Below are positions 11,303 to 53,733 of a stretch of DNA of 53,733 bases, in pieces (within the stretch, counting starts at the first letter, position 1; every line of letters starts with the position of its first letter). The translations under genes and the position numbers were made by a program. The notes beneath the pieces were generated by a model. That model made no database searches, was not told the DNA's origin, and worked only from the letters and a program-made list of their open reading frames with translations. This DNA comes from Tepidisphaerales bacterium (GTDB taxonomy: Bacteria > Planctomycetota > Phycisphaerae > Tepidisphaerales > Tepidisphaeraceae). Location of the stretch: the NCBI GenBank assembly GCA_038223165.1, contig JBBRHE010000001.1:1-53733 (forward strand). Reading direction: 5' to 3'.

Positions 11303-12364
11303 ATGATCGATTCACCGGAACAGCGGTTACCGCGCAGACGTAGTATTGCTACTTTACACGCCGTGACTTGTGGGGACGTTCCAACTCACTCTCAGATTAC
11401 GAAGGACAATTTGCCCGAAACCCATCAACCGACCACAGCGGTTCATCCTGCGCATGCACCTGAACGGATGCACCGCATCTCTTTCATTATCCGCACGGTG
11501 AACCTGGTTGCTGTGGTCGTCCCGCTTTTAGGCTTTCTTGCGACGGCTGTTCTCCTGTGGGGCCATGGGTTTGACGCAGTTCAGTTGGGCATTTTCCTTG
11601 TCATGTATTTTGCGACGGGGCTGGGTATCACCGTCGGCTACCACCGGTTGTTTACGCACCGGGCCTTCGAAGCGAACCGCGCCGTGACCGCGACACTGGG
11701 CGTGCTGGGGTCGATGGCCGTCGAAGGCCCCCTGTTGAGGTGGGTCGCCGCCCATCGTCGGCATCATCAACACGCCGACGACGAACTGGACCCGCATTCA
11801 CCTCATCACCATGGCTCGGGGTTTTGGGGCGCGCTAAGGGGTCTGTGGCATGCGCATGTTGGCTGGCTGTTTTACCCCGACGCGCCCGGTCAAAGCCGCT
11901 ATGTGGGTGATTTGCGTCGTGATCCGATGCTTCGAAAAATCAGCTCACTGTTCCCGCTCTGGGTGCTGCTGGGACTGGTCTTGCCCTCTGTGGCAGGTGG
12001 ACTGCTGACGATGACGTGGAGCGGCGCACTGCTCGGGTTTCTCTGGGGTGGTTTGGCTCGCGTGTTCCTCGTCCATCATGTGACATGGAGCATCAATTCG
12101 GTGTGCCATCTGTGGGGTAGCCAGCCGTTCAAGGAGGGTGACGAAAGTCGCAACAATCTTATCTTTGGCGTCCTGGGCATGGGTGAAGGGTGGCACAACA
12201 ACCACCATGCGTTCCCGACGTCTGCCCGCCACGGTTTACGCTGGTGGGAACTGGACATGAGCTACTGGGTCATTCGCGCTTTAAGTGCTTTGGGTCTTGC
12301 CTGGAAAGTGCGAACCCCCGACCCCGCCTCCATCGCTGGCAAACGCAAACGCTCGGCGGCGTAG
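11303..12364 (+). CDS. Acyl-CoA/acyl-lipid delta-9-type fatty acid desaturase
   Basis: Three histidine boxes HRLFTH, HRRHHQH and HNNHHAF with TM segments between them. The true start may be an internal Met (MHRISF). Confidence 0.85.
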   Translation: MIDSPEQRLPRRRSIATLHAVTCGDVPTHSQITKDNLPETHQPTTAVHPAHAPERMHRISFIIRTVNLVAVVVPLLGFLATAVLLWGHGFDAVQLGIFLVMYFATGLGITVGYHRLFTHRAFEANRAVTATLGVLGSMAVEGPLLRWVAAHRRHHQHADDELDPHSPHHHGSGFWGALRGLWHAHVGWLFYPDAPGQSRYVGDLRRDPMLRKISSLFPLWVLLGLVLPSVAGGLLTMTWSGALLGFLWGGLARVFLVHHVTWSINSVCHLWGSQPFKEGDESRNNLIFGVLGMGEGWHNNHHAFPTSARHGLRWWELDMSYWVIRALSALGLAWKVRTPDPASIAGKRKRSAA

Positions 12365-37335: not shown

Positions 37336-38778
37336 ATGAAAGTGCCATTAGACCTCGCCAACCCGCGCCTGCTGATCGGTTCCGAGTGGACGGCAGCGAC
37401 CGATTCCTATGCGGTCGTCGACCCCTTCACAGGCGCTACCATCGCAACCGTCCCTCAGGGCAATACGGCGTTGCTTGATCGGGCCGTCGCCGTGGCGCAT
37501 GAAGCGTTTGAACGGACGCGCAAGCAGCCGCCATACGAGCGAGCCGCGGTTTTGCACAAGGCGGCGGCGATCCTGGAATCGCGCACGCAGCAACTCGTCG
37601 ACACGATCGTCGCCGAGGCGGGCAAGCCGATCGTGCTGGCCGAGGCGGAGGTCAGCCGGGCGATTATGACGATGACCGCGTCCGCAGAGGCCGCGCGGCA
37701 ACCGAACGGTCAGATACTCGACGTTGATGCTTTCAGCAGCGGGGCCAACCATTTCGGCCTTGCCCGACGGTTTCCGATCGGCGTCATCTATGCGATTACA
37801 CCGTTCAATTTTCCGCTGAACCTCGTTTGCCACAAGCTCGGGCCCGCGATCGCGACGGGGAACACGGTGGTCCTCAAGCCCGCGCCGCGCACACCACTTT
37901 CGTCGCTGTTGCTGGCGGACGTGCTGCTAGAAGCGGGGATGATTCCCGGACAGGTGAACGTCGTCACGTGTCCGAACGATCTGGCGGGTCGACTGGTCAA
38001 AGACGATCGTGTGAAGATGATTTCGTTCACCGGCAGTGTCAAAGTGGGCTGGGCGATCCGCGAGAATGCTGGTCAGAAAAAAAACGTCCTCGAGCTCGGG
38101 GGTAACGCGCCGGCGATCGTCGAGCCGGACGCCGACCTTGATGCCGCGATCCCCATCCTCGCCAGTGGTGGGTTCGCTTACGCGGGGCAATCGTGCATCC
38201 ACACGCAGCGCATCTACGTGCACGAGGCGATCTATGAGACGTTCCGCGACCGTTACGTCTCGCAAGTGAAGGCGAAGATCAAATTGGGCGACCCGCGCGA
38301 TCGTGATGTGCTGGTCGGCCCACTGATCGACAAAGCCGCAGTGGGACGCATTGACGAATGGGTCAAGGCAGCCGTCGAACACGGCGCGACCGTACTGACC
38401 GGTGGTGCCGCCGAGGGTGTGTCGTATCAACCGACGGTTCTGGAAAACGTCGACCCGACGGACGAGGTGTCGTGCAACGAGGTTTTTGGGCCGGTTGTCG
38501 TCCTGGCATCGTATAAAACGTTTGACGATGCAATTGCGATGGCTAACAACAGCCGGTTCGGCATTCATGCCAGCCTATTCACCCGCGACCTCACCAAGGC
38601 GATGGCCGCGTACGAACGACTTGAGTTTGGCAGTGTCTTGATTAACCAAGCCCCGACCTTCCGCGTCGAAACGTTGCCTTATGGTGGCGTCAAAGAGAGT
38701 GGCGTGGGCCGTGAAGGCGTTCGTTACGCGATGGACGACATGACGGAGATCAAAGCGCTGGTGATGAATCTGAAGTGA
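37336..38778 (+). CDS. NAD(P)-dependent aldehyde dehydrogenase
   Basis: ALDH motifs LELGGNAP (catalytic Glu) and GQSCIHTQR (catalytic Cys), plus FTGSVKVG. Confidence 0.9.
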   Translation: MKVPLDLANPRLLIGSEWTAATDSYAVVDPFTGATIATVPQGNTALLDRAVAVAHEAFERTRKQPPYERAAVLHKAAAILESRTQQLVDTIVAEAGKPIVLAEAEVSRAIMTMTASAEAARQPNGQILDVDAFSSGANHFGLARRFPIGVIYAITPFNFPLNLVCHKLGPAIATGNTVVLKPAPRTPLSSLLLADVLLEAGMIPGQVNVVTCPNDLAGRLVKDDRVKMISFTGSVKVGWAIRENAGQKKNVLELGGNAPAIVEPDADLDAAIPILASGGFAYAGQSCIHTQRIYVHEAIYETFRDRYVSQVKAKIKLGDPRDRDVLVGPLIDKAAVGRIDEWVKAAVEHGATVLTGGAAEGVSYQPTVLENVDPTDEVSCNEVFGPVVVLASYKTFDDAIAMANNSRFGIHASLFTRDLTKAMAAYERLEFGSVLINQAPTFRVETLPYGGVKESGVGREGVRYAMDDMTEIKALVMNLK

Positions 38779-38816
38779 CCTTTGGTCACGTACGTTGTTT
38801 CCTCGACAAGGTGATC

Positions 38817-39953
38817 ATGACCGACAACTCGCTGAACCCTCAATCACCGCCTTACACCAAGCCCGACGCCAGCGTGATGGTGGACGTCAAGGACGTCACC
38901 AAGCGGTGGGGTACGTTCACGGCGGTCGACAATGTCAGCCTGCAGATCAAGGCCGGCGAGTTTATCACGCTGCTCGGGCCCAGTGGCTGTGGCAAGACGA
39001 CGCTGCTGCGGATGATCAGCGGGTTTGAGACGCCGACGGTCGGCAGCATTCTGCTTGATGGACGGGACGTTACACACTCGCCACCTTACAAGCGGGACGT
39101 CAACCAGGTGTTTCAAAGCTATGCGTTGTTCCCGCACCTGACCGTCCGTGAGAACATCGAATTTGGCCTGCGGATGAAAAAGGTGCCGCGCGACGAGATG
39201 GTGGGGCGCGTCGACGAAGCGGTTCGGATGGTCTCTTTACAGGGAATGGAACTGCGCAAACCGTCGCAATTGTCTGGTGGTCAGCGGCAGCGCGTGGCGT
39301 TGGCGCGAGCGATCGTCAATCGGCCCAAGGTGCTGTTGCTCGACGAACCACTCAGCGCGCTCGATGCCAAGCTCCGACACGCGATGCAGATCGAACTGAA
39401 ACGACTGCAGCAGAAGCTCGGCATTACGTTCCTGTTTGTCACACACGACCAGGAAGAAGCGTTGACGATGAGCGACCGAATCGCGGTCGTGAACAAGGGG
39501 AAGATCGAACAGCTTGGGACGGTCAACGAGATTTACCATAAGCCAAAGACGACGTTTGTCGCTCACTTCATTGGTGAAGCGAACGTGATGGACGTGGGCG
39601 TGATCGCTGTCGACGGTGAACGGGCTCGCGTCGACCTCGGTGGGGGGATTGAACTGATCGTTGACGCGGTCAACCTGCCAGCCGGCGCCAAATCGGCGCG
39701 GATCTCGGTGCGTCCCGAAAAGCTGCACCTGACGAAACACGTCCCCGCTGCTAGTGAGAACCTGTTCATGGCAACCGTGGAGGAAGAACTGTTCAGGGGC
39801 GCGATCGACGAGTTGCTGCTCCGCACGCCCAGTGGCCGGGAACTGACCGCGGTCGTCGCGAACGAAAGCGGGTTGACCGAAGCCCTGCACGTGGGGGATG
39901 AGGTCTACATCCAGCTGCACCCGGACGACATTGTGGTAGTGCAGGAAGAGTAG
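38817..39953 (+). CDS. ABC transporter ATP-binding protein, PotA/CysA-like importer type with C-terminal TOBE-like domain
   Basis: Walker A GPSGCGKTT, signature LSGGQRQRVALARA, Walker B LLLDEPLSALD. No permease or binding-protein gene is adjacent. Confidence 0.88.
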   Translation: MTDNSLNPQSPPYTKPDASVMVDVKDVTKRWGTFTAVDNVSLQIKAGEFITLLGPSGCGKTTLLRMISGFETPTVGSILLDGRDVTHSPPYKRDVNQVFQSYALFPHLTVRENIEFGLRMKKVPRDEMVGRVDEAVRMVSLQGMELRKPSQLSGGQRQRVALARAIVNRPKVLLLDEPLSALDAKLRHAMQIELKRLQQKLGITFLFVTHDQEEALTMSDRIAVVNKGKIEQLGTVNEIYHKPKTTFVAHFIGEANVMDVGVIAVDGERARVDLGGGIELIVDAVNLPAGAKSARISVRPEKLHLTKHVPAASENLFMATVEEELFRGAIDELLLRTPSGRELTAVVANESGLTEALHVGDEVYIQLHPDDIVVVQEE

Positions 39954-40202: not shown

Positions 40203-41009
40203 TTAGTGCCGTGGCAGACCATCGAGATACCGACCGCCTTTGCCCTGGTCGCGGCGGCGCATGAACTCGATGAGGGTTTTAACGTGTGGGTTCATGCCGT
40301 TCATGGTGTCGAACTCGGCGATGGCGGCGGCGAAGGGTTTCTCGCGGTAGTAGAAGAGTCGGCGGGCGGCGTCGTCGATCGCTTCGATGTCGGAATTTGA
40401 GAACCCCCCGCGACGCAGACCGACCACGTTCACGCCACGCACGATGTTCGGACCGTCGATCTTCATGAACGGTGGCGCGTCGTGTGTGATTCGGCTGTAT
40501 GCCGTGATGAAGCAGAACTCGCCGAGCGTCACGCGCTGGAAGATGCCGGCGCAACCACCGAGCGTCACGTTGTTCCCGAGGATGACGTGCCCACCAAGCA
40601 TGGCGTTGTTGATCAGCGTGCAGTTGTCGGCAACGTTCGCGTCGTGACCGACGTGCGCGTTGACCAGAAGCATGTTGTTGTTGCCCAGCCGGGTGATGCC
40701 ACCCCCGGCCTCCGTGCCGGCGTGGATCGTCACGCTTTCACGGAAGATGTTGTCGTTACCGATCTCGACGCGGATGTTCTCCCCACCCTTGAACTTCTTG
40801 TCTTGCGGCGGGCCACCGATGACCGCGTTCTGAAAAAACGTGTTGTTGCGCCCGATCGTCGTGTTGCCGGAGATCGTCACGCCATTGTACAGGACCGAAC
40901 CTGCCCCGATCGTAACGCCAGGACCAATGACGCAGAACGGACCGATCACCACATCGTCTGCAACGCGTGCAGCCGGGTCGACAAGAGCATGGGAGGAGAT
41001 ATTGGGCAT
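40203..41009 (-). CDS. lpxA: Acyl-ACP--UDP-N-acetylglucosamine O-acyltransferase
   Basis: Hexapeptide-repeat left-handed beta-helix with the typical LpxA N-terminus (HALVDPAARVADDVVIGPFCVIGPGVTIG) and C-terminal helical domain. Confidence 0.92.
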   Translation of the reverse strand: MPNISSHALVDPAARVADDVVIGPFCVIGPGVTIGAGSVLYNGVTISGNTTIGRNNTFFQNAVIGGPPQDKKFKGGENIRVEIGNDNIFRESVTIHAGTEAGGGITRLGNNNMLLVNAHVGHDANVADNCTLINNAMLGGHVILGNNVTLGGCAGIFQRVTLGEFCFITAYSRITHDAPPFMKIDGPNIVRGVNVVGLRRGGFSNSDIEAIDDAARRLFYYREKPFAAAIAEFDTMNGMNPHVKTLIEFMRRRDQGKGGRYLDGLPRH

Positions 41010-41112: not shown

Positions 41113-42429
41113 CTAGACCGGTTCCGCATCGACCAACATGAACTTGATGTCCGCTTCGCAGGCCAGTTTGTCCAACACGAAAGCCTTGCAGCGGACGTGA
41201 CCGGTACGGCTCTTCACGCGAACGGTGACAGCCTCCAGCATCAGCTGGTCCCCGGGTACGACCGGATGCCGCATCTTCACCTTATCCATGCTCAACAGGA
41301 CCGCAAGCTTGCCGGTGTGTTCCAGCTTTCGGCTGAGCAACAGGCCACCGAGCTGCGCGAGCGCCTCGACAATCAGCACGCCGGGCATGATCGGGGTGCC
41401 CGGATAGTGACCCTGAAAGAAGATATCGTTGAACGTCACGTTCTTGATGCCGATCGCTTTCTCGTCACCCTCCATCGACAGGACGCGGTCGACGAGCAGC
41501 ATCGGATAACGGTGAGGCAGCAGCCGTTGAATCTTACGGATGTCCATCACCGCGTCGCGCTGGAACAGCGCCTGGCGGTCGGTGACGTCCTGCTGTTCCA
41601 TCAGTCGGCGGGCCAGCACGTGGTTGAGCGCATGTCCGCTTCGCGACGCGATGATGCGCCCGAAGATGGGTCGACCGACCAACCGCAGGTCTCCGATAAG
41701 ATCCAGGACCTTGTGGCGAGCACACTCGTCGGCGAAGCGGAAGGCGTTGTCGATCGGGCCGTTGGCTGAGATGACCAGCAGGTCGCGCGTGGTCAGGTGT
41801 TTACCAATGCCGCGTGCCTTGGCTTCCTCGGCCTCGCGTTCGAACAAGAATGTCCGGGCCGGGGCGATGAGGGTCGCGAAATCGTCCTCACCGAGCGTGA
41901 ACGCTACCGTCTGTCGACCGACCGGGGCGGGGGCCTCGAAGTCGTAGATGATCTCGAGCCGGTCGGTCGGCCCCGGAAGGGCGGCGATGGAGGCCGAGTC
42001 ACTGGTGACCTGGATGGGCTTTTTGATGATTAACGGTTCCAGCGCTGCGCCTTGATCGGTGAATCCGGCGCTGGTCAGCATGTCGACGAACGGCAGGCTG
42101 CTCCCGTCGGCCGAGGGAAGTTCACCCGCTAGCCCACCACTGACCCGCACGTTGGCGTTGGTGACCCCCATTCCCGCCAGCGCGGCCATGGCGTGTTCGA
42201 CGGTCTCGACCCAGAGCGTACCATTTTTCAGGCAGGTCCGGCGGGGGCGCTTTAGGACATTTGTCACTAATGCCGGAATCCGAGCAGACTTACCGTCCTG
42301 CTCGCGAACGAAGGTGATGCCGCTGTCAGCCTCGGCGGGCGCGAATGTCAACGTCGAGGGCTCACCTGAGAACAGGCCTGGCCCGGTAAATGAGACTTCC
42401 TTCAAAATGGTTCGCTGGCGGTCAGGCAC
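41113..42429 (-). CDS. lpxC/fabZ: Bifunctional UDP-3-O-acyl-GlcNAc deacetylase / 3-hydroxyacyl-ACP dehydratase
   Basis: The N-terminal LpxC fold (QRTILKEVSFTGPGLFSG...HKVLDLIGDL) is fused to a C-terminal FabZ hotdog (LPHRYPMLLVDRV...FFQGHYPGTPIMPGVL). GTG start at 42429. Confidence 0.92.
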   Translation of the reverse strand: MPDRQRTILKEVSFTGPGLFSGEPSTLTFAPAEADSGITFVREQDGKSARIPALVTNVLKRPRRTCLKNGTLWVETVEHAMAALAGMGVTNANVRVSGGLAGELPSADGSSLPFVDMLTSAGFTDQGAALEPLIIKKPIQVTSDSASIAALPGPTDRLEIIYDFEAPAPVGRQTVAFTLGEDDFATLIAPARTFLFEREAEEAKARGIGKHLTTRDLLVISANGPIDNAFRFADECARHKVLDLIGDLRLVGRPIFGRIIASRSGHALNHVLARRLMEQQDVTDRQALFQRDAVMDIRKIQRLLPHRYPMLLVDRVLSMEGDEKAIGIKNVTFNDIFFQGHYPGTPIMPGVLIVEALAQLGGLLLSRKLEHTGKLAVLLSMDKVKMRHPVVPGDQLMLEAVTVRVKSRTGHVRCKAFVLDKLACEADIKFMLVDAEPV

Positions 42430-42574: not shown

Positions 42575-42838
42575 TCAGGCGCTGACGGTCGGGCCGTGGT
42601 CGACTGCGACTTGGCTGACCTGCGCGTGCATCGCTTTGAAGCCTTCGGTGTCGGCCAGGATCGAGAGGGCTTCTTCGAGGCTGTCCAACTCGCTCTTGGT
42701 GATGATGACGCACCGCTCGTCGCAGCCATTGCGGGTAATCTCGACACGCGAACGATGACGCACGATCTTCTCGTGCAACCTCGCCAGCCCACTGCCCACA
42801 TGGTTCACGTCCAGCGTCTCAAAACCATCAGCCGACAT
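42575..42838 (-). CDS. Phd/YefM-like type II antitoxin (orphan)
   Basis: 87 aa with a Phd/YefM pattern (RVEITRNGCDERCVIITKSELDSLEEALSILAD). No toxin-sized ORF lies on either side. Confidence 0.6.
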   Translation of the reverse strand: MSADGFETLDVNHVGSGLARLHEKIVRHRSRVEITRNGCDERCVIITKSELDSLEEALSILADTEGFKAMHAQVSQVAVDHGPTVSA

Positions 42839-43046: not shown

Positions 43047-43382
43047 CTAAAGCGCTTTGCGAAACTGTACGGCCATTTCAAACTTGCCGTTGCTGAGGGG
43101 GCGAGAGCGGACGACCTCACACAAGTGTGACGCTGCCGGTGAACCGTTGGCTTTGACGTCCATCCGGCAGGTTTGTCCGACGGCCAGCGACTCCTTCAGC
43201 AGGAACGACACGCCGCTGAACGACAGGTCGCGCGTTTGGATGTCGTGGACGGAGTTGGCATTGGCTCCATCAAGGACAGTCAGTGTCGCCTTGTGCTGCA
43301 TCGGTTTTCGATTGTCGCGACGGCGTTCGTTGTGCGGGGTGGCGAGCGAAACGGTCTGGCGAACGGAAGAAAAGCTGTTCAT
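43047..43382 (-). CDS. PilZ domain protein (c-di-GMP receptor)
   Basis: RRRDNR (RRxxxR) and DLSFSG (DxSxxG) motifs at canonical spacing. 111 aa. Confidence 0.75.
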
Positions 43383-43792
43383 AGAATGTCACTGCCTTCA
43401 ATGACGTCTGACGTGATCAGTAGCGGGCCGGGGTAGATCTGCCAATCCATTGGCATTTGACCTGCGAAGGGTCGCGATGCGCGGATGCAACGGGGGCTGT
43501 AATCCCTTCTGCAAGACACTGCATCGCAAGATCTAAACTATGCCGGAACTGCCCCATTCGGCAGGGTAAGCGAGTCGTAGCATACCGTATGCCGTATGCG
43601 AGACTCTTTTATCACCGACCGATAGTTGTTGTCAATTTGGACGCAAACGCGAAAAAACGAGGCAATACTTTTCGGCGTCGAATATTTTTCAGCGTCGCGC
43701 CATTTGGCAAAAACGACAACAGGAGTTACAGATTTGATGTACAACAGGCACGGAACAGACCCATCGATGCCTGCACAAAGACGGAGGCAGTC

Positions 43793-46700
43793 CTGCTAGT
43801 CCCTATTCTATCGGCCCAATGTCCGCCGAAACTCCAATGCAACGGGCGGACGTATTGGCTGACTGCACTCTGTCTCGTCGCACTGTTTGCCAGCTTCGCG
43901 CTGCCGGGAGTGGTACGGGCTGAGATCAACGCTGAGACATACGAGGCAGATCTGCGAGCGATCGCGACACCGACGTCGCGCGTGATCGGCTCTGATGGCT
44001 ATGCCGCAACGGTTCGCTATGTTCAGGCGACTCTGGAAGCGCTTGGGGAGGGCGTCGAGGTTCGTCGACACGAATATCCGGTCGTCGTTCCGCAGACATC
44101 GTCGGCGACCCTCGCGATCGCCGGGGGTGCGACGCACGACGTCTACCCCTTTTGGCCGGCCGGGGTGCGACTAAATGGAACGCCCACCGAAGGGATCAGC
44201 GGTCGAGTGGTGTATGTGGGTGACGCGACGCCTGCCGAAATCAAGCCCGCCTCGATCCGTGGGCAAATCGCCGCCATTAACGCGACGGCGGGGCCGCGCT
44301 GGCAGCAGGTCGCGTATTTCGGCGCTAAGGCCATCATCGTTCTGGGGGACGACAAGACGACCAATTTCGACTTACGCTCGCATGACCTGCAACTGCCGGT
44401 CAACATGCCACGTTTCTACGTGCCCGCAGGGGCGTTAGCCGACGCGATCAAGGCCGGGCAGCTTGCTGGGAACGAAAATGCCGCGACGCTCAAATCGGTG
44501 CTGAACTGGCGGCAGGTGTCGGCGGTCAACCTGTACGCCTTTATCAAGCCTCGCATCGATAAGCCCCAAGGCTGGGACAAGCCGGCCAATCCCGCGGCCA
44601 TCACGTTCTCAGTGCCGCTCGAAGCCAGTGGCCTGGTGCCCGACCTCGCCAGTGGTGCCGGGCAAGCCGTGCAGACCGCTGCGGGCCTGGCACTGGCGCG
44701 CACGTTTGCGGCGCAACCGGCCGACCGACCCGTTCTCATTGTCTTCACGGGTGCCGATAGTATTCAACAACTCGGTTCGCGCAACCTGCTTATGGCGCTG
44801 GCCGAGCCACCGGGCAAATGGCAGAGCCTGCTGACGACGATGGAGGTCGACGAAAAGCTCACCGCCGACCACACCACCCGTGTGCAGACACTGATGACGG
44901 CACCCCAGTCAATCGACCCGACGGCCGATCGATTGCTCATCGACCGCCTGCGCAAGCTGATTGAAACCGATACGACAGCCAAGCAGGAGCAACTGTTTCG
45001 CTACCGACTGTTCACCGATGAAGAAAAGCGGGCCGCCGGTGTCGAGGGGACCGTTCGGCAACTGGAAGACGAGAGCATCCGCATCAGTGGTGTTCGCGCG
45101 GCGTTCGAGCACCGACCGGCGGACCTGGTCAAACCCGAGAATCGCCCCCTCGTCGACTACTACCTGCAGAAGCTGATGAATCGCCTGACCGGCGCTGATG
45201 GACAGCGTGGGTTGAAGCAGGACTACGCCGACCGCCGGGCCATTCTGGAACGTCGGATCGAGCTGTACCAATGGCTCGCCAGCCGGCTGAATCGCCCGTC
45301 GGACCCGAGCATTAAGGCCAACAACTCACGTCTGATCGAACTGCTCGTTGCAATTGATTTGTCCGACGCCGGTGTGCGCATGGGGCCGATGTTCTATGGC
45401 TATGCCCAGCGGTCTTCCAACATCAGTCAGATCCAGGAATTTCGCGACTGGTTTGCCCGTCAGCAGAAGTCGTCCGCCGATGGCAGGGGTGGCGATTGGG
45501 TCAGGCAGACCGCAGCCGTCGTCGACCTCGAACCGCTCAACAACTCGCGCTTGCCCCAAAGCTGGCACTCCACGCCAATGCTGATCGGTTCTGAGACCAG
45601 CATGGCCTGGGGGGTGCCCGGGTTGACGATGATGACGCTGGACGACCTGCGCCTGCGCCGCGACACTCCGGCAGATACCTTGGCGAACCTGTCAGTCGAC
45701 AAGGTTCGCAACGTCATCCTCCCTCAACTGGAAGCAATAGAAGCGATCTTCCGTCCCGCACTAGCGGATCCGAAGTTCGTCGGCCAAGTCGAATTGAAGT
45801 GGGACCTCGGTGAGATCCGTGGGCAAGTGGTGGGCCTGGCGTCCGGTCGGCCCGTGCCCGACCTGCCGCGCGAGGGGTTCTACACGACTTACTACTACGC
45901 GAATAATGGCAGCGGGAAGATCCCGTCGCTCAAGTCCCTGCCTTCGGTGCTCGGCATGCGACGAAGCGAACTGCTGAGATGCGACGCCGAGGGACGCTAT
46001 CTCATCGAGGGCATCCCGCGCAACGGTGATCAGAACGGCTTGGCGATCCACGTCTACAAACCCGAGCCCGGTACGGGGCGCATCATCGCGGCGAGCGACC
46101 TGGGCAAAGGTGCCGGTGACATCAAGTGGTTCGCCGACCTGCGGCAGGACAACACGAGAATGCGCAGCGTAGTCTTCGACTGCGCCGAGTTCTCGCTGTT
46201 CGGCCTGTACGACCCGCGCTTCCTGCAGTCGCTCGGTGAGGTCATCCCGCTCGACGCGCGGCGCAACGCTGAGCCCCAGAAGTTCAGCTTCCTGATCCGC
46301 GACCAGATGCTCGCCGGTTTCGTCGAACCGTCGTTGCGCGCGATGTTGCTGTTCCGATACGGGCGCGTTGGCAATCGCCTGATGTTGCTGAACATCGACC
46401 CCACCGCGATGGGCAGTGGCGTGGGTGAAGGGGCGTTGGGTTACACCGTGCCCGAGTTGAACGACCTCGGGCCACTGTCACTGGCGACGGTCGAGGATTT
46501 TGCAAAGCTCGATGCCAAGCGGTTGGCCGACTATCGCAAGGCGGGTGTCAGCAGTGACCTGGTCGACAGTCTGCACGCCGAGTCCGCCGAACGAATTAAG
46601 ACCGCCAAGTCTGCCGTAATCGCCGACGATGGCGCAGGTGTCACGGCCAACGCCAACGGCGCTTGGGCCGACGAGGCCCGCGTTTACCAGGCTGCCCAGG

Positions 46701-48868
46701 ACATGGCGAGCGACGTCGTCCGCGCGGCTATCTTCCTGCTGTTGCTCTGCGTGCCGTTCTCGTTCTGCATGGAACGGCTGGTGATCGCGTCACCCAACAT
46801 CTACAAGCAGATCGCAGGCACGTTCTTCATCTTTATGATCATGACTGCGGCGCTCTGGAGTTTTCACCCGGCGTTTAAGATCAGCTCAAGCCCGCTGGTG
46901 ATCATCCTTTCCTTTGCGATCATTCTCATGTCTGCCGTCGTTATGTGGGTGCTGTATGGGAAGTTTGACACGGAACTGAAGCGCATTCGCAGCGGGCGCG
47001 GGACCAGTGAGGGCGCAAGCTTCGCGCGGGCCAGCGTGCTCATGAGCGCCGTGGTGCTGGGCATCGCGAACATGCGCAAACGTAAGTTTCGCACGGTGCT
47101 GACGAGCATCACGGTCGTGCTGATTACGTTCGCTGTGTTGTGCTTCACCAGCGCCAGCCGGTTCGTCGGCACCAGTGCGTTGCCGGCGGGTGTCGATTCG
47201 TCTCATCCGGGCCTCATGTTGCGCCAGCGCGGCTTCCGGCCGATGCCCACCGTCGTCCTCGACAACCTCGCCGCCGTGCTGGGAAATCAACCGATCGCCC
47301 AGCGATGGTGGAACGTGAACGCGTTCGACCCGAACGAGCAGATCCACATCGTCGCCGGTGGCCTCGACGGCAAGCCACCGCGCGTGTTTGTCGCGCAGGC
47401 GCTGCTGGGAGTCACACCAGCCGAGACGAGCGTGTCGAAGATTGACGAGGTAATCGGCAAGGACAAGTTCGCTCGTCTGCAAAAGGAAAAAGACATCATC
47501 TTCCTCAGCGGTTCGATAGCGGAGCAACTGCTGGTGAAGGAGGGGGACACGGTCAAGATCGGCGGGCTGGACTTGAAGGTCGCTTCCATCTTCGACGCCG
47601 ATGACTTCGACCAGAAGGTCGTCACGCTTAGTGGTGAGTCGCTGGCGCCGTTGAAGTACAGCAGTGGCGCGCTCGACGCGGGTGGCCGAAAGTTGTCCGA
47701 CAGCGCGCTGGAAGACCTCGACGTCAGTGACGACGTCGCTGCGAGCGAGGCATCGGGTGGGGCGTACGAACACCTGTCGTCGACCCGGTTCGCGATCGTG
47801 TCGGCCGAAGTGGCGCAGCAACTGCCGCTAGCGTCACTGCGCAGCGTCGCGCTGCGAGCGAGCGATTTCAAAACGGTCGAGAAACTCAGCGACGAACTTA
47901 CACGGCGCTTCGCCGTTACGACATTCGCGGGGTACGAAGACGGTGTGAAGCTCGTGACCGCCAGCAACCTCGCCAGCGTGAGCGGGGCGGGGCAAGTTGC
48001 GGTGCCGCTGGCGATTGCGGGGCTGATCATCTTCAACACGATGATGGGCTCGATCGCCGAGCGCCGGCGAGAGATTCACGTTTACACCTCGCTTGGGTTG
48101 GCGCCGCTGCACGTTGGGGCGCTTTTCGTTGCAGAGGCGATGACGTATGGCCTGATCGGCACTGTCTTCGGTTACATCATCGGACAGGGGGTCGGCACAG
48201 CCCTGCTGAAGCTTGGTTGGCTCGGTGGTGTGACGCTCAACTACAGTGGCAGCAGCGCGATGCTGACGATGGGGTTGATCCTGCTGATCGTGCTGCTGAG
48301 CGCGCTGGTCCCTGCAAGGCTTGCCAGCAAGATCGCCGCGCCGAGCATCGAGCGAAGTTGGCGTGTGCCACTGCCTAAGGACGATGAAATTCGCGCCGTT
48401 CTCCCCTTCACGATCAACAAAACCGCCGCCGACGGCGCGCTGGCGTATTTAGCGGAGTTCTTCGAGGCGCACCAGGAAGGGAGCATCGGCAAGTTCAGCG
48501 CGGGAAAAGTCGAGACTTTCGTCTTCACCGACGAGCAAGGCCGCACCAGCCGCGGGCTCAAGACCGTCATCTGGCTGACACCGTTCGACCTCGGTGTACG
48601 ACAACATCTCATGCTGATGATCCACCCCGGTGAGTTTCCTGAGATCTACGAGGTCAACGTCTACCTTCAACGCCTCAGTGGCGACGACGGAAGCTGGTAC
48701 CGCATGAACCGCACGTTCCTGACCGAATTGCGCAAACAGTTCCTGTCCTGGCGGTCGCTGTCACCCCAGCGCATGCTGGATTTCGTCGAAGAAAGCAAAC
48801 GCCTGTTTGCCGATGTGCCCGATCGAGTCGTGACGACGTCGGCGGGTGAAGCGGTTAGGTTGGGATAA
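43793..48868 (+). CDS. Giant membrane protein: signal/TM, PA + degenerate M28 peptidase-like + helical domains, beta-rich region, TM bundle, FtsX/MacB-type permease module, cytoplasmic C-terminal domain
   Basis: The frame is open from 43457. The start is uncertain: CTG 43793 has GGAGG 5 nt upstream, and the first in-frame ATG is at 43589. PA-like segment GRVVYVGDATPAEIKPASIRGQIAAINATAG...GAKAIIVLGD. M28-like topology is present without the metal ligands. The FtsX core reads IIFNTMMGSIAERRREIHVYTSLGLAP...AEAMTYGLIGTVFGYIIG, preceded by the RKRKFRTVLTSITVVLITFAV TM helix and a ~230-aa loop. Confidence 0.85.
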   Translation: MLVPILSAQCPPKLQCNGRTYWLTALCLVALFASFALPGVVRAEINAETYEADLRAIATPTSRVIGSDGYAATVRYVQATLEALGEGVEVRRHEYPVVVPQTSSATLAIAGGATHDVYPFWPAGVRLNGTPTEGISGRVVYVGDATPAEIKPASIRGQIAAINATAGPRWQQVAYFGAKAIIVLGDDKTTNFDLRSHDLQLPVNMPRFYVPAGALADAIKAGQLAGNENAATLKSVLNWRQVSAVNLYAFIKPRIDKPQGWDKPANPAAITFSVPLEASGLVPDLASGAGQAVQTAAGLALARTFAAQPADRPVLIVFTGADSIQQLGSRNLLMALAEPPGKWQSLLTTMEVDEKLTADHTTRVQTLMTAPQSIDPTADRLLIDRLRKLIETDTTAKQEQLFRYRLFTDEEKRAAGVEGTVRQLEDESIRISGVRAAFEHRPADLVKPENRPLVDYYLQKLMNRLTGADGQRGLKQDYADRRAILERRIELYQWLASRLNRPSDPSIKANNSRLIELLVAIDLSDAGVRMGPMFYGYAQRSSNISQIQEFRDWFARQQKSSADGRGGDWVRQTAAVVDLEPLNNSRLPQSWHSTPMLIGSETSMAWGVPGLTMMTLDDLRLRRDTPADTLANLSVDKVRNVILPQLEAIEAIFRPALADPKFVGQVELKWDLGEIRGQVVGLASGRPVPDLPREGFYTTYYYANNGSGKIPSLKSLPSVLGMRRSELLRCDAEGRYLIEGIPRNGDQNGLAIHVYKPEPGTGRIIAASDLGKGAGDIKWFADLRQDNTRMRSVVFDCAEFSLFGLYDPRFLQSLGEVIPLDARRNAEPQKFSFLIRDQMLAGFVEPSLRAMLLFRYGRVGNRLMLLNIDPTAMGSGVGEGALGYTVPELNDLGPLSLATVEDFAKLDAKRLADYRKAGVSSDLVDSLHAESAERIKTAKSAVIADDGAGVTANANGAWADEARVYQAAQDMASDVVRAAIFLLLLCVPFSFCMERLVIASPNIYKQIAGTFFIFMIMTAALWSFHPAFKISSSPLVIILSFAIILMSAVVMWVLYGKFDTELKRIRSGRGTSEGASFARASVLMSAVVLGIANMRKRKFRTVLTSITVVLITFAVLCFTSASRFVGTSALPAGVDSSHPGLMLRQRGFRPMPTVVLDNLAAVLGNQPIAQRWWNVNAFDPNEQIHIVAGGLDGKPPRVFVAQALLGVTPAETSVSKIDEVIGKDKFARLQKEKDIIFLSGSIAEQLLVKEGDTVKIGGLDLKVASIFDADDFDQKVVTLSGESLAPLKYSSGALDAGGRKLSDSALEDLDVSDDVAASEASGGAYEHLSSTRFAIVSAEVAQQLPLASLRSVALRASDFKTVEKLSDELTRRFAVTTFAGYEDGVKLVTASNLASVSGAGQVAVPLAIAGLIIFNTMMGSIAERRREIHVYTSLGLAPLHVGALFVAEAMTYGLIGTVFGYIIGQGVGTALLKLGWLGGVTLNYSGSSAMLTMGLILLIVLLSALVPARLASKIAAPSIERSWRVPLPKDDEIRAVLPFTINKTAADGALAYLAEFFEAHQEGSIGKFSAGKVETFVFTDEQGRTSRGLKTVIWLTPFDLGVRQHLMLMIHPGEFPEIYEVNVYLQRLSGDDGSWYRMNRTFLTELRKQFLSWRSLSPQRMLDFVEESKRLFADVPDRVVTTSAGEAVRLG

Positions 48869-48909
48869 AGAATGATGCACCGCACCGACGCCGAGACGCC
48901 GAGAAGAAA

Positions 48910-49015
48910 AAAGTGTGCCTTCCGACAAATTGGCACGAAGGAAACACGAATGAATACGGATGGATTGGGCTTGCCACTTCTCATTTGTGTTCCATTCGTG
49001 CGGATTCGTGGGCAA
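48910..49015. repeat. Imperfect inverted repeats carrying CACGAAT / ATTCGTG motifs
   Basis: cacgaatgaatacggatgg (48945-48963) versus ccattcgtgcggattcgtg (48992-49010); gtgtgccttcc versus gaaggaaacac nearby. Confidence 0.35.
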
Positions 49016-49078
49016 GTTTCCTGACTTCACTTGGTGTACGCGTCTCTGCGGTGAACAACGCATTTTGAGCCTGATTGC

Positions 49079-51082
49079 ATGAAAGAAGATCTCGAACTCA
49101 AACAATTCCGCGAGCTGATGCCCGCCCCTGACCATTGGGAGGAGGGTTTTGGCTACAAGGCCATGATCGGCGCGCTGTTCGTCGGGCTCATCATGACGCC
49201 GGCGAGCATGTACATGTCGCTGGTCGTCGGGCAGGACGTCGGGTCTGCGGCACAGTGGGTGACGATTATCCTGTTTATCGAGGTCGCGCGCCGCTCGTTT
49301 ACGACGCTGCGCCGGCCGGAGATTTACGTCCTCTACTACATGGCCGGGGCGGCGGTCGTGAACGGGTCTGGGTTGTTGTGGAACCAGTTCCTCGTTCAGA
49401 GCGATGCGTTTCGATCGTTTGGAATCGCCGACAAAATCCCCAGTTGGGTTGCGCCGTCAAATCCGGATATTCTTGGTCAGCGGTCGTTCTTCCATTCTGC
49501 GTGGCTGGTACCGATTGGCTTGATGGCGCTCGGCCAGGTTCTACAGCGCGTCGATCACTTCGGGCTCGGGTACGTAATGTACCGGCTTACCAGCGACGTC
49601 GAGAAACTCCCTTTCCCAATGGCCCCCGTCGGCGCTCAAGGCATCACCGCGCTGGCGGATGCATCCGGTGGAAAGGAGACCTGGCGGTGGCGCGTCTTCT
49701 CGTTCGGCTCGATGCTAGGCATGGTCTTCGCCGCCGTCTACCTTGCGCTGCCGGCCGTTACCGGTGCGTTCCTGCCTGAGGGCATCAGCATCTTCCCGAT
49801 CCCGTTTAAGGATCTGACGACGAACACACAGTCGTTCCTGCCCGCCGTGCCGATGATGCTCAGCTTTAACTTGGGCCTTGTGCTTGCGGGCATGGTGTTG
49901 CCGTTCTGGGCGATGGTCGGCGGGTTGGCTGGCTTGATCTTCACGATGGCGATCAACCCCGTCCTCTACCAAACCGGCATCCTCAAGACCTGGGCACCCG
50001 GCACGCCCGCCATCGCGACGATCAACGCGAACTATCTCGATTTTTACCTCTCGTTCGGCCTCGGCTTGACCGGCGCCATCGCGGCGATCGGCTTCTGGCA
50101 CGTCTTCAGTGGCCTGCGTCGCAAAAAGCAGTCGATCGACGAAAGCGGCACTGCGACGATCGAATGGCGTAATCTCTTCAATCCACCGGCCGGGCGCGGG
50201 GACATCTCGCTCTGGATCGGCGTTCTGATTTACGTCGGCTCGATGTGCGTCACGATCGCGCTCGCGTGGTGGTTGCTGGACAAAGCACACCAGAACAACC
50301 CCGCCAACAGCCCCGTCTCGATGACGCTTTTGGCCGTGCTGGCGTTTTACGGTTTTGTCTACACGCCGATCATCAGCTATGTGTCGGCTCGCATGGAGGG
50401 CATCGTCGGCATGACCGTGCAGGTGCCGTTCGTCCGCGAAGCGACATTCATCCTCACTGGCTACCAAGGGGCCGCGATCTGGTTCGCGCCGTTCCCTGCG
50501 TACAACTATGGGGCGCAGACCGTCTACTTCCGCCAGACCGAACTCACCGGCACGAAGATCACCAGCATGATCAAGGCCGAGGCGTTCGTCATGCCGATCG
50601 TGATCGTCGCGACGCTCGTGTTCAGCCAGTTCATCTGGCAGATCGCGCCGGTGCCGAGCAGCGCGTTCCCCTACGCCCAGCAGTTCTGGGAAGTGAACGC
50701 CTACCGCCAGGCGATCATCATGAGCAGCACACTGCCCGGTGGGGAAAACGGTCCGTTCTACGAGGCGTTTAACGTCATTTACCTGGGCGCGGGGCTGCTT
50801 TTGGCGTTGGGAACGTACGCGAGCATGTCGTTCTTTGGCCTGCCGATCCTGTTGGTCTACGGCGTGATCCGCGGGTTGGACCAGAGCACGCCGGACGTCA
50901 TCGTGCCACAGTTCATCGGCGCGTTGCTCGGTCGCTACATCTTCGCCAAGAAGTTCGGCGACATGTGGCCGCAGTACCGCGTGGTGTTCTTTGCGGGCTA
51001 CGGGTGCGGTGTGGGGCTGGTGATGATGTTGAGCCTCGGCTTAGTCTTCATGAGCAAGAGTGTGTTCCAGGCAACCTATTAG
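49079..51082 (+). CDS. Polytopic membrane protein, OPT (oligopeptide transporter)-like
   Basis: 667 aa, almost entirely TM helices. The N-terminal segment SMYMSLVVGQDVGSAAQWVTIILFIEVARR resembles the OPT NxYxxLKxGxxxxASIPAA region, and the C-terminal helix pattern is also OPT-like. Confidence 0.8.
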   Translation: MKEDLELKQFRELMPAPDHWEEGFGYKAMIGALFVGLIMTPASMYMSLVVGQDVGSAAQWVTIILFIEVARRSFTTLRRPEIYVLYYMAGAAVVNGSGLLWNQFLVQSDAFRSFGIADKIPSWVAPSNPDILGQRSFFHSAWLVPIGLMALGQVLQRVDHFGLGYVMYRLTSDVEKLPFPMAPVGAQGITALADASGGKETWRWRVFSFGSMLGMVFAAVYLALPAVTGAFLPEGISIFPIPFKDLTTNTQSFLPAVPMMLSFNLGLVLAGMVLPFWAMVGGLAGLIFTMAINPVLYQTGILKTWAPGTPAIATINANYLDFYLSFGLGLTGAIAAIGFWHVFSGLRRKKQSIDESGTATIEWRNLFNPPAGRGDISLWIGVLIYVGSMCVTIALAWWLLDKAHQNNPANSPVSMTLLAVLAFYGFVYTPIISYVSARMEGIVGMTVQVPFVREATFILTGYQGAAIWFAPFPAYNYGAQTVYFRQTELTGTKITSMIKAEAFVMPIVIVATLVFSQFIWQIAPVPSSAFPYAQQFWEVNAYRQAIIMSSTLPGGENGPFYEAFNVIYLGAGLLLALGTYASMSFFGLPILLVYGVIRGLDQSTPDVIVPQFIGALLGRYIFAKKFGDMWPQYRVVFFAGYGCGVGLVMMLSLGLVFMSKSVFQATY

Positions 51083-51100
51083 GGAGGTTGCCGACATGCG

Positions 51101-53299
51101 ATGGTTGATCTGCGATTGGACGGCACTGTCCTTCGATCGCGAACTGACCCTCCCACGTCGGCAATCGAAAATCTTCGAATGTCCGATCGACCTGAAATCA
51201 TCCCCGCCCGTCGTGCTCTGAATGTGCGCAGCGTCCTGCTCGGACTGCTCGGCGTGCTCTTCATCTGCGGCCTGACGCCGTACAACGACTTTGTCCTGGC
51301 CAACACGTTTCTCGTGGGCAACTTCATGCCGGTCGGGCTGCTGTTGTTTTTCGGCGCTGTGGTGATGCTCGTGAACGCCCCGCTGTGGCGATGGCGTCCA
51401 CGCTGGGCGTTCGGTACCGGCGAGTTAGCGGTGGCGATGGGGATGACGCTCGTCAGCTGCACGTTGCCGAGCAGTGGGTTGATGCGGTACCTGCCGGCGC
51501 ACCTGGCCAACGTCCACTACCATGCAGACGCTAACGTCGATTACGCGCGCGTCGTTGCCGACCTGAATTTGCCCGAGTGGGCGTTCCCGACGTTCGAGGG
51601 GACGTCGACATCCGACATCGCCAAGGACGACGTCGTGAAGTACTACCGCAACCGTATTCCCCTTGGCGAGGAGGGGGCTTGGGGCCGCATCTTCCGCGCG
51701 TGGGTGCGGCCGGCCATCGGGTGGGGCGCGTTGCTCGCGTGCATCTACGGCGCGGTACTGTTCGCGTCGGTCATCGTGCGCAGGCAGTGGGTGGAGAACG
51801 AGCGGCTCGCATTCCCGCTAGCCAGCGTCTATCTATCCCTGATCGAGGCACCGGCACCAGGCCGGTCGTTCAACGCGCTGTTTCGCAACTGGGGGTTCTG
51901 GATCGCGGCAGCGTCGGTCTTTACATTCCACGCGTTTAACGGGCTGCACCGCTACGATGCGGAACACTGGCCAGAGTTGCCGATCAGCTTTGACCTGGGC
52001 AACCTGTTTACCAGCCCACCTTGGTCGTACATGACCTGGGGGTTCAAGTCGCAGACGCTCTACTTCTGTGTGATCGGGTTTGCGTTCTTCATCCAGTCGA
52101 ACGTCGCGTTCAGCCTGTGGTTTTTCTACGCGGTACTCTTGCAGTTGACGGTCGTGCAGTTCGCGGCGTTTGGAGGGGACTTCAACAGTTCGGCACGTCA
52201 AACCGACCTGTGGCTCGGCGCGTTGATCCCCTTCGCGATGACCGTCCTCTGGATTGGTCGCGGACAATGGGCCGTCGTGTGGCGACAGATGATCCGGCGC
52301 GGCCGCGCCGACGACCCGCGCGGGCGCTACCTGCCTTACGCGCTGGCTGGTTGGGGCCTGCTCGCGTGCCTGGCGGGCACGGTCGCGTGGCTGCTGGCGG
52401 TGGGCGTGACGTTTGCGGGCGCGGTCGTCATCGTCGCGATGCTAGGGCTGTTCTACCTCGTGCTGGCGCGCATCGTCGCCGAGACGGGCCTGATCTTCGT
52501 CCAGTTGAGCATCCCGCTCGACCGGCCCTGGGTCTACGCGCTGCAGGACCTGCCAGCTTCGATGGCGACCCGTCCGACCGGGCCGACCAGCTTCTGGAGC
52601 GGGATGATCGGGGGCACGCTCGCCCACGACGTGCGCGAGGCGCTGCCCCCATTCGCGATCCACGCGCTACGCGTGACCGACATGGCCGCGTTCGATGACG
52701 CCAAAGACGACGGTGGTGGACGTGGTGGAAAGACTAGCCGCGGTCACGGGTACGGCGTGTTCGCAACGCTCGTGCTGGCGCTGATCGTCGGGTTCCTCGT
52801 CGCCGGCGCCAGCACGCTCTGGGCCGAGTACTCGTACGGCTCCACGCTCGACCGTCAACCGCAGTCGCCGTTGAATGGTTACGGCGTCAACGCCACACCG
52901 AACAGCCAGATCCTCGGCCCGACGCTTAACTTTCAACCGCCTAACAACGGGCCCAAGGAATCGCACAGCCATCCGTTGTACCTCGCGATCGGCGCGGGGG
53001 TCAGTGGTGCGCTAAGCCTCCTGCGATTGCGTTACCTGAACTGGCCACTGCACCCGATCGGACTGCTGACCTGTTTCAGTTACCCAGCGCAAAGAATCTG
53101 GTTCAGCATCTTTCTCGGATGGCTTGCCAAGGTCATCATCGTGCGGTTCGGTGGCTCGGACATGTTCAAGCGCGCCCGCCCGCTGTTCATCGGCCTGATC
53201 CTGGGTGAAGCGGCGGCCGCGTCGTTCTGGCTTATCGTCAGCATCATCCGCAACTCGATGGGATACTCGTACGAGGCAATCAACCTGCTGCCGGGCTAG
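51101..53299 (+). CDS. Polytopic membrane protein of unknown function (distantly OPT-like C-terminus)
   Basis: 732 aa with many TM helices. GGGAGG overlaps the end of the upstream gene. The C-terminal LAKVIIVRFGGSDMFKRARPLFIGLILGEAAAASFWLIV resembles the last OPT helices. An alternative start is ATG 51179 (MSDRPEII). Confidence 0.8.
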   Translation: MVDLRLDGTVLRSRTDPPTSAIENLRMSDRPEIIPARRALNVRSVLLGLLGVLFICGLTPYNDFVLANTFLVGNFMPVGLLLFFGAVVMLVNAPLWRWRPRWAFGTGELAVAMGMTLVSCTLPSSGLMRYLPAHLANVHYHADANVDYARVVADLNLPEWAFPTFEGTSTSDIAKDDVVKYYRNRIPLGEEGAWGRIFRAWVRPAIGWGALLACIYGAVLFASVIVRRQWVENERLAFPLASVYLSLIEAPAPGRSFNALFRNWGFWIAAASVFTFHAFNGLHRYDAEHWPELPISFDLGNLFTSPPWSYMTWGFKSQTLYFCVIGFAFFIQSNVAFSLWFFYAVLLQLTVVQFAAFGGDFNSSARQTDLWLGALIPFAMTVLWIGRGQWAVVWRQMIRRGRADDPRGRYLPYALAGWGLLACLAGTVAWLLAVGVTFAGAVVIVAMLGLFYLVLARIVAETGLIFVQLSIPLDRPWVYALQDLPASMATRPTGPTSFWSGMIGGTLAHDVREALPPFAIHALRVTDMAAFDDAKDDGGGRGGKTSRGHGYGVFATLVLALIVGFLVAGASTLWAEYSYGSTLDRQPQSPLNGYGVNATPNSQILGPTLNFQPPNNGPKESHSHPLYLAIGAGVSGALSLLRLRYLNWPLHPIGLLTCFSYPAQRIWFSIFLGWLAKVIIVRFGGSDMFKRARPLFIGLILGEAAAASFWLIVSIIRNSMGYSYEAINLLPG

Positions 53300-53326
53300 C
53301 TTCGCGTCACGCGGCAAACGACCTTC

Positions 53327-53733
53327 ATGGCAACCACAATCGAACCAACTTCGCCTTCCACGCTCGGCACGCGACGCACGGCGTCGCCTCTGGTCTGGCA
53401 GGGTTTGCGCCTCGGCGTGCCGGGCGAATGGTCGCCCGTGAAGATCGAAGGCGACTTCGACAAGGGCTTTATCTCGCTGGCGGACCTGGACCGTGATCGC
53501 CTCGGTGTGCGATGGCAGACGGTGAGCACCAAGGCGGACCCCGTCGCGCTCGTCAGCACCGCGATGCGCAACGAGGTGGGGCAGTTGGCGTTCGACGAAT
53601 CGATCGAACGGCAGCCTGATGGCGATTGGTCGGTCGCCCGGCTGTACGTCGAGCCCGAACCGCCCGGCCGTGACGTGTGGATCGGATATTCCCACCGAAC
53701 GCGACGGATCGTGCAGGTCGTCTATCACGCCCA
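53327..53733 (+). CDS. Hypothetical soluble protein, 3'-truncated by window edge
   Basis: ATG at 53327, 27 nt after the upstream stop. The frame stays open to the window end (MATTIEPTSPSTLGTRRTASPLVWQGLRLGVPGEWSPVKIEGDFDKGF...) with ordinary composition. The antisense ORF 53012-53728 is Arg/Asp-rich. Confidence 0.5.
   Translation, partial: MATTIEPTSPSTLGTRRTASPLVWQGLRLGVPGEWSPVKIEGDFDKGFISLADLDRDRLGVRWQTVSTKADPVALVSTAMRNEVGQLAFDESIERQPDGDWSVARLYVEPEPPGRDVWIGYSHRTRRIVQVVYHA

Follow-up and report, generated by a model that had tools for sequence, protein, structure and literature searches.

What does the run of membrane-protein genes at the 3′ end of a planctomycete contig encode, and do its members belong to one system? 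The stretch in question (Tepidisphaerales bacterium, assembly GCA_038223165.1, contig JBBRHE010000001.1, positions 1 to 53,733; hereafter the window, 53,733 nucleotides (nt) in full) ends in four same-strand genes that a preliminary description had read as a candidate envelope module, composed of a giant peptidase-like/FtsX fusion protein, two OPT-like membrane proteins and a soluble protein. We find that the 5′ two-thirds of a conserved operon lie within the window, that the operon encodes one inner-membrane machine, and that the giant contributes one of the two halves of a heterodimeric type VII ATP-binding cassette (ABC) system of the MacB/LolCDE/FtsEX class. The system is LolCDE-like, with accessory parts, and we are highly confident of its composition and architecture as set out below; its mode of action is a matter of more tentative argument.

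The four open reading frames (ORFs) fill the 3′ end of the window on the + strand (43457..48868, 49079..51082, 51101..53299 and 53327..>53733), and their coordinates agree with the gaps of 210, 18 and 27 nt reported earlier. Along the giant, the parts follow one another as signal peptide, M28/PA fold, beta-sandwiches, helical stalk, three transmembrane (TM) helices, FtsX permease and C-terminal domain. Its class membership is carried by the C-terminal third, where Pfam FtsX (PF02687) matches at 7e-14 (52 bits against a cut-off of 25.5), as it does in 23 of 23 family members, and where a PDB profile search returns MacB (1e-12), YtrF, LolF and LolE/LolC, with LolE aligned over residues 108–168. 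MacB_PCD is matched by 16 of the 23 members at E ≤ 0.01; on the window's giant the same family scores under its cut-off of 27 (0.0026, 18.5 bits). Between the three extra TM helices and the four-TM FtsX module sits an amphipathic elbow helix.

The window breaks off within the fourth ORF, and its own downstream genes were read from the two closest relatives, L086 (giant 82% and permease A 91% identical to those of the window) and L001, a Tepidisphaeraceae metagenome-assembled genome (MAG; 73% and 86%). In both, the OPT-like gene or genes are followed by a 301–309-amino-acid (aa) orphan, a 126-aa PqqD-family protein, a 334–340-aa FtsX permease and a 261–265-aa ABC ATPase, and the window's truncated ORF4 corresponds to the orphan, being 64% identical to the 301-aa protein of L086. 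The relatives' ATPase has LolD as its best NCBIfam match (2e-69), followed by MacB (3e-65) and FtsE (4e-60). The absence of an ATPase claimed earlier is therefore true of the part of the module inside the window, but is an artefact of the window edge, since the L086 and L001 clusters continue after ORF4 through the orphan, PqqD-family and FtsX genes to a LolD/MacB-type ATPase. By this gene order, the giant's partners would lie just past the window end and comprise the small FtsX permease with one LolD/MacB-type ATPase (two in Lentisphaerota and Verrucomicrobiota). An ATPase-less FtsX orphan is ruled out by the ATPase found downstream in the syntenic relatives. Of the two soluble companions, the PqqD-like protein matches PF05402 (5e-12) and, by profile, the lasso-peptide B1 protein 9x90 (2e-9), PqqD (3g2b) and TbiB1, with all scores under the equivalog cut-offs; the ~300-aa orphan family has no Pfam, NCBIfam or PDB match, and contains no conserved Cys or His.

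The remainder of the giant is predicted to project ~920 residues into the periplasm, made up of an M28/PA fold that lacks metal and catalytic residues, beta-sandwiches and a stalk. An AlphaFold2 (AF2) model of residues 25–950, built with 56 sequences, has a predicted local distance difference test score (pLDDT) of 93 and a predicted template modelling score (pTM) of 0.92; its M28/PA fold spans residues ~1–612, broken by a long helical insertion, and its three-helix stalk leads from the ectodomain into the membrane. Sequence and structure point to the same fold. A PDB profile search with the 23 family members matches 2ek8 (4.4e-20), Bacillus subtilis YwaD and nicastrin (6e-6) over the first ~320 positions, and Foldseek with the model returns 2ek8 (8e-17), BSAP, PaAP, transferrin receptor 1 (TfR1) and GCPII. 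Pfam gives no M28 match on the window's giant, and Peptidase_M28 is matched by four distant members of the family. The beta-sandwich and stalk region has no Pfam or PDB sequence match.

Although the fold with its inserted PA domain is that of M28 peptidases, the zinc ligands (His, Asp, Glu, Asp, His) and the catalytic Glu are not present. In 23 of 23 aligned members HxD is replaced by P/Y-L/F-E/D, GAxDDxSG by GAGQAVQ, the EE that supplies the catalytic and ligand residues by DS, and YHTxxDT by RRDTPxDT, and these losses extend to the members that still match Pfam Peptidase_M28. Because all hallmark motifs are changed, the domain is a pseudopeptidase, and an active aminopeptidase is ruled out. 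The peptidase-like/FtsX fusion of the preliminary description thus stands, by profile (M28/PA at 4e-20, MacB/Lol) and by AF2 with Foldseek, and the domain is not expected to be catalytic.

Relatives of the giant's membrane module have been catalogued already, as shown by strong matches to two PADLOC models over the three TM helices and FtsX module (window 46709–48500, aa ~950–1546), namely CARF_m8--CARF_LolE_TM (1.9e-57) and CARF_m8--CARF_Beta-galactosidase_LolE_TM (1.3e-23). The strongly conserved three-TM region falls within the match to profile PDLC01991 (positions 75–357), and the M28/PA ectodomain does not match the CARF_m8 models, whose source appears to be the CARF classification of Makarova et al. 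2020. A PADLOC family that carries a beta-galactosidase-like ectodomain on a homologous module suggests that, across the wider family, the ectodomain is a swappable unit for ligand recognition. The giant's C-terminal cytoplasmic domain, which alone has no Pfam, PDB or PADLOC match, may be the region from which the CARF_m8 models take their name; its sequence pattern nevertheless appears unlike an alternating beta-alpha Rossmann fold. An anti-phage defence system was considered and rejected, as the PADLOC matches stem solely from the generic membrane module and the ATPase, and the neighbourhood contains no CRISPR or defence genes.

Both proteins encoded after the giant are polytopic and helical according to the AF2 model and hydropathy, and ORF4, which has no hydrophobic segment, is soluble, in keeping with the earlier description. 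Their OPT-like character is likewise supported, for permease B by predicted structure and for permease A by a sequence bridge. The AF2 model of permease B (pLDDT 94.6, pTM 0.94) has a single significant Foldseek counterpart in the PDB, barley Yellow Stripe 1 (HvYS1; 7wst/7wsr, E 4e-9, probability 1.00, TM-score 0.55–0.67), whose entries are the sole solved structures of the OPT/YSL family, the next matches having E > 7e-3, and its sequence scores over the cut-offs for Pfam DUF6785 (5.6e-83, 279.6 bits) and DUF6784 (1.9e-30, 105.5 bits). Permease A (667 aa) belongs to a large, very conserved family, with close relatives at 70–91% identity and 944 representative clusters at E ≤ 1e-3. The window's permease A has no Pfam family match; one of 23 family members matches Pfam OPT (1.3e-6), and two distant full-length relatives, P0425 and P0444 (29% identity), pass the OPT gathering score with 64 and 42 bits against 25.8. 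Neither window permease reaches the PF03169 gathering score, and PDB sequence searches with both families gave no match. Between A and B there is a weak hhalign link (28% probability) and a common E(K/R)LPFP(M/L)A motif. Recent paralogy of the two was rejected, BLASTP finding nothing between them.

Whether the four genes form a conserved neighbourhood was assessed in a scan of one genome per species, which found relatives of the giant in at least 588 genomes. The best 80 of these, all 80 of them MAGs, fall in Tepidisphaerales and Phycisphaerae, Brocadiia, Pirellulales, Verrucomicrobiota, Lentisphaerota/Victivallales, Kiritimatiellota, Sumerlaeota and Armatimonadota. At the 43 loci with enough flank, each component was counted with its own hidden Markov model (Table 1). 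The gene arrangement recurs across phyla and lies far beyond chance, with one or two OPT/YSL-fold permeases, a cytoplasmic PqqD/RRE-type protein (RRE being the RiPP recognition element, and RiPP a ribosomally synthesised and post-translationally modified peptide) and the ~300-aa orphan co-inherited with the giant. Conservation of the neighbourhood, on which the earlier description hinged, is accordingly borne out, with OPT-like A at 39 loci and the orphan at 35; DUF6785 is variable, occurring in 21 loci at two alternative positions (upstream of the giant, or between permease A and the orphan), and is absent from the closest relative, L086. Permease A is therefore the universal partner of the giant and permease B an accessory component. 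Unbiased clustering of the flanking ORFs brought no additional recurrent family to light; two clusters that seemed to be extra are antisense shadows of cluster genes.

Table 1. Features of the module and its upstream flank in the window, with the number of loci, out of 43, that carry each component.
Feature	Window position	Strand	Basis or remark	Loci (of 43)
PilZ-domain protein, 111 aa, divergent from the operon	43047..43382	-	Pfam PilZ 5.2e-10	8, all Tepidisphaerales-type
Conserved ~110-nt non-coding block, PilZ/giant intergenic region	43534..43643	+	GGAAC...CCCATTCGGCNGGGTAAGCG...TTGTCAATTT, with short GC hairpin	
Giant: signal-peptide-like N-terminus, LTALCLVALFASFALPGVVRA/EI	43859..43930	+	Signal peptides of relatives; start codon uncertain	
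Giant: ectodomain part 1, M28 aminopeptidase fold with inserted PA domain and long helical insertion	43931..45766	+	Profile, AF2, Foldseek	
Giant: ectodomain part 2, beta-sandwiches (model residues 626-820) and three-helix stalk (840-925)	45806..46705	+	AF2 secondary structure	
Giant: three extra TM helices preceding the FtsX module	46715..46951	+	Hydropathy peaks at aa 953-971, 985-1003 and 1013-1031	
Giant: MacB/LolCE-type (type VII ABC) permease, with elbow helix, TM1, probable periplasmic core domain and TM2-4	47012..48334	+	Pfam, PDB profile	
Giant: C-terminal cytoplasmic domain, ~175 aa, fold unassigned	48341..48865	+	14 invariant residues across 20 loci of several phyla	
Permease A (OPT-like A), OPT superfamily, polytopic, 667 aa	49079..51082	+	Adjoins the giant; sequence bridge to Pfam OPT	39
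Permease B, OPT fold, DUF6785 and DUF6784, 706 aa from M27 (maximal ORF 732 aa from 51101)	51179..53299	+	Pfam, AF2/Foldseek	21
ORF4, N-terminal 135 aa of the ~300-aa soluble orphan 'unk300', ended by the window edge	53327..53733	+	64% identity to L086 protein	35
PqqD-like protein				35
Small FtsX				34
ATPase				at least 29

The loci vary among themselves. Two tandem ATPase paralogues lie downstream of the small FtsX gene at L040, L043, L050, L059, L060, L063–L066, L069, L071 and L082; such versions occur in Lentisphaerota, Verrucomicrobiota and some Planctomycetota, and they imply a heterodimeric pair of nucleotide-binding domains (NBDs) that matches the heterodimeric permeases. At L012, L013, L033 and L079 the genes after the giant homologue are unrelated ones (for a PSCyt/PSD1 protein, a two-component system, a DegT aminotransferase and a glycosyltransferase), so that the partner genes are either elsewhere in the genome or missing. 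Finally, L086 has a gene for a 138-aa protein of the PDDEXK_3 nuclease family (7861–8277) between the giant and the OPT-like gene, at the site of the window's 210-nt gap, and at L004 a DUF6785/DUF6784 protein 51% identical to that of the window (10001–12121) stands alone beside NADH-dehydrogenase-like and PadR genes, indicating that the DUF6785 family is not confined to this operon.

Set against known systems, the machine resembles LolCDE in its plan, with two different FtsX-type permeases, a LolD-type ATPase, an FtsX module and, probably, a MacB_PCD module in common. It differs in scoring far under the Lol equivalog cut-offs, in the make-up of its permeases (one with a 920-residue pseudopeptidase ectodomain, three extra TM helices and a C-terminal domain, the other with a reduced periplasmic domain) and in its OPT-like, PqqD and orphan partners, which have no Lol counterpart. 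MacAB-TolC offers the same MacB-type permease fold, probably the same periplasmic core domain, and the same mechanotransmission class; here, however, the NBD is not fused, and the conserved set is devoid of a membrane-fusion protein or outer-membrane factor. The earlier statement that no adaptor or outer-membrane partner is encoded holds up: neither appears in the gene tables of L001, L005, L007 and L086 or among the recurrent flanking families, and a tripartite efflux pump is thereby ruled out. FtsEX-EnvC/PcsB/CwlO systems share a type VII ABC part coupled through helices to a metallopeptidase-fold domain, which in EnvC is dead and serves as a regulated binding module. Here, by contrast, a dead M28/PA domain takes the place of LytM/M23 and forms one polypeptide with the permease, the neighbourhood encodes no hydrolase partner, and OPT-fold permeases and an RRE-like protein belong to the set.

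Outside the ABC systems, the M28 and PA ectodomain on a membrane protein recalls nicastrin of gamma-secretase, TfR1 and GCPII, and in nicastrin and TfR1 the zinc ligands are missing as they are here; by analogy, the giant would act as a receptor or gatekeeper. Unlike these proteins, it is bacterial, stands on an ABC permease, and has a long helical insertion and extra beta-sandwiches, with identity of 10–17%. To OPT/YSL transporters (PF03169, 7wst/7wsr) the machine is related through the fold of permease B, the sequence bridge of permease A and an LPFPxA-type motif, whereas both window permeases lie under the PF03169 threshold and are tied genetically to an ABC system; we know of no other OPT protein tied in this way. 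Likewise, the 126-aa downstream protein of the relatives is a PqqD-family domain, as are the recognition elements of RiPP pathways (PqqD, lasso B1, TbiB1), but the cluster has no precursor peptide or modifying enzyme, and a RiPP cluster is ruled out. Small ORFs that recur in or near the clusters are shadows of known genes, and no conserved precursor was found among them. In sum the building blocks are all known folds (type VII ABC, M28/PA, OPT, RRE), and their combination is absent from the papers and curated families searched. Literature queries on the operon, on DUF6785 function, on FtsX with M28 and PqqD, on a nicastrin-like ABC system, on OPT with FtsX and on CARF_m8 returned nothing relevant, and the earlier remark that no characterised operon has this composition agrees with our finding no paper that describes the arrangement.

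How the parts may cooperate can be approached from what related proteins do. In type VII ABC systems, ATP hydrolysed in the cytoplasm drives movement in the periplasm, which is established for MacB, LolCDE and FtsEX; nicastrin, TfR1 and EnvC (dLytM-EnvC) use dead peptidase folds as binding modules; RRE/PqqD domains bind linear peptides; and characterised OPT/YSL proteins import oligopeptides or metal chelates. By analogy, we favour peptide capture followed by uptake, a mechanism we would call possible and place somewhat short of even chances. The dead peptidase ectodomain would be a receptor that captures a peptide-like ligand, and ATP hydrolysis in the cytoplasm would set it in motion through mechanotransmission, the mode of other type VII ABC systems. 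This movement would load the ligand onto, or release it from, the OPT-fold permease, which would carry it across the membrane into the cytoplasm, to be bound there by the RRE-like protein and the orphan. Since the characterised OPT/YSL proteins are importers, uptake is the direction that we consider most likely. A more specific version, in which primary and secondary transport would form a hybrid, the type VII ABC system with its dead-aminopeptidase receptor mechanically loading peptides or a free-terminus ligand into the OPT-fold permease and the RRE-like protein receiving the cargo, is unlikely in that exact form.

Several considerations weigh against capture and uptake. To our knowledge no type VII ABC system acts in uptake, and the putative link between the ABC part and the OPT-like proteins is one of gene adjacency. 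The normal role of RRE/PqqD domains, on ribosomal precursor peptides that are yet to be exported, speaks for the outward direction, and the conserved Arg-rich RRDTPxDT pocket could take a non-peptide anion as its ligand. In addition, 4 of the 43 loci carry the giant with no partners nearby, and the downstream genes of this genome are predicted from its relatives and not read from its own contig.

Were the direction outward, the PqqD/RRE-like protein and the orphan would recognise a cytoplasmic ribosomal peptide or protein encoded elsewhere, the OPT-fold protein would provide a conduit, and the type VII ABC system would extract or expel the substrate periplasmically like LolCDE/MacB, for export or surface delivery, with the ectodomain as a fused adaptor or holding chaperone that replaces the membrane-fusion protein. 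The RRE-type domain confirmed by profile is consistent with such a route, as are the outward or periplasmic action of all characterised type VII ABC systems and a ~920-residue ectodomain with a helical stalk in a cluster that encodes no separate adaptor or outer-membrane factor. Against it, neither a conserved small ORF or precursor, in or beside the clusters, nor a modifying enzyme was recognised, the OPT/YSL proteins that have been characterised work as importers, and the Armatimonadota loci L072, L076 and L078 seem to have no PqqD and orphan genes nearby; we regard export as improbable. A regulator of the FtsEX-EnvC kind is a still less probable alternative, in which the ABC motor would toggle the dead ectodomain to activate or sequester a separate periplasmic hydrolase, for instance a cell-wall enzyme, with the OPT-fold permeases then recycling the peptides set free. 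The design is parallel (type VII ABC, helical or coiled-coil elements, dead metallopeptidase fold), and lineages whose division machinery is unusual widely conserve the system, in single copy, but the conserved neighbours include no hydrolase gene, the dead domain is M28/PA and not LytM, the RRE-like protein is left unexplained, and in most phyla the small FtsX (~230 aa) is wholly or almost devoid of a periplasmic domain.

All of these readings presuppose a single system, and the genes could instead be mere neighbours belonging to two or three independent systems, the ABC permease being one, with the OPT transporters separate from it and the PqqD gene unrelated. The lone DUF6785 gene at L004, the loci at which partners are not near the giant (4 of 43), the 210-nt gap after the giant and the insertion of the PDDEXK gene there in L086 would be compatible with this view. 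The same gene set, order and strand nevertheless persist from Planctomycetota to Armatimonadota and Sumerlaeota while the surrounding genes differ, and the spacings between genes are short or overlapping, making coincidental association very improbable.

At least 588 species-level genomes conserve the combination; they belong to phyla that dominate in the environment and have been little studied (Planctomycetota, Verrucomicrobiota, Lentisphaerota, Kiritimatiellota, Armatimonadota and Sumerlaeota). The machine is at once widespread, wholly uncharacterised and experimentally approachable. Its study would give a first functional context to DUF6785/DUF6784, to a large unannotated family of bacterial OPT-like proteins and to two orphan domains, would provide a bacterial example of a dead-peptidase receptor in the style of nicastrin or TfR, and would possibly yield the first MacB-class motor that cooperates with a secondary transporter. 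If hybrid uptake were true, nutrients or signal peptides would be imported in a new way, one that is specific to the Planctomycetota–Verrucomicrobiota–Chlamydiota (PVC) superphylum and a few other phyla.

Two of the gene starts call for comment. The giant ORF has a maximal length of 1803 aa, and a realistic product is about 1650–1670 aa (1652 aa in the gene call of the Joint Genome Institute, JGI). The giant's relatives open with a classic signal peptide; in the window, no canonical in-frame start codon precedes the signal-peptide-like segment (43800–43930), the sole nearby ATG (43837) lies in another frame, and the public JGI call begins at GTG 43910 and so removes the signal peptide. Either a 1-nt error in the assembly or a start codon of non-canonical type would account for this. 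The DUF6785 protein probably starts at M27 (51179); its 706 aa are then identical to P0001, and the second intergenic gap grows from 18 to 96 nt. No intrinsic terminator was predicted in the + strand gaps, terminator and sigma-70 promoter scans being at background level, and the long leader and the 210-nt gap have no Rfam match and contain no riboswitch or known RNA.

Upstream of the giant, a non-coding block of ~110 nt is near-invariant in the window, L086 and L001, even though the proteins are 64–91% identical. Searches with nhmmer find the block at these loci only, a 20-mer taken from it has 0 chance matches, and Rfam has no match to it; it may be a promoter, of the extracytoplasmic function (ECF) type, or a leader element, and is at present a candidate for either. 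The divergent PilZ gene beyond it, noted previously, keeps the RxxxR (RRDNR) and DxSxxG (DLSFSG) motifs. PilZ accompanies the giant in 8 of 43 loci, all of Tepidisphaerales type, so control by cyclic di-GMP would be at most a lineage-specific add-on. PilZ is also found upstream of the giant at three of the four loci L012, L013, L033 and L079.

The wider upstream context of L086 and L001 is that of the window, with LpxC/FabZ, an ORF of 87–88 aa and divergent PilZ. In the window, a bifunctional LpxC-FabZ fusion (41113–42429, - strand; NCBIfam PRK13188, 9.6e-116) adjoins LpxA (40203–41009, - strand), and the linkage of these lipid A genes to the module is kept in L001 and L086 and not in other phyla. 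Between LpxC-FabZ and PilZ lies an 87-aa ORF (42575–42838, - strand), whose L086 counterpart is near-identical residue for residue and which has an ORF of similar size at the same place in L001 (87–88 aa across the two). The only ABC ATPase within the window is an importer-type protein with a TOBE domain (38775–39953), located after an aldehyde dehydrogenase gene and unrelated to the module. Positions 2275–9611, towards the beginning of the window, hold two + strand ORFs of very large size (1184 and 1254 aa).

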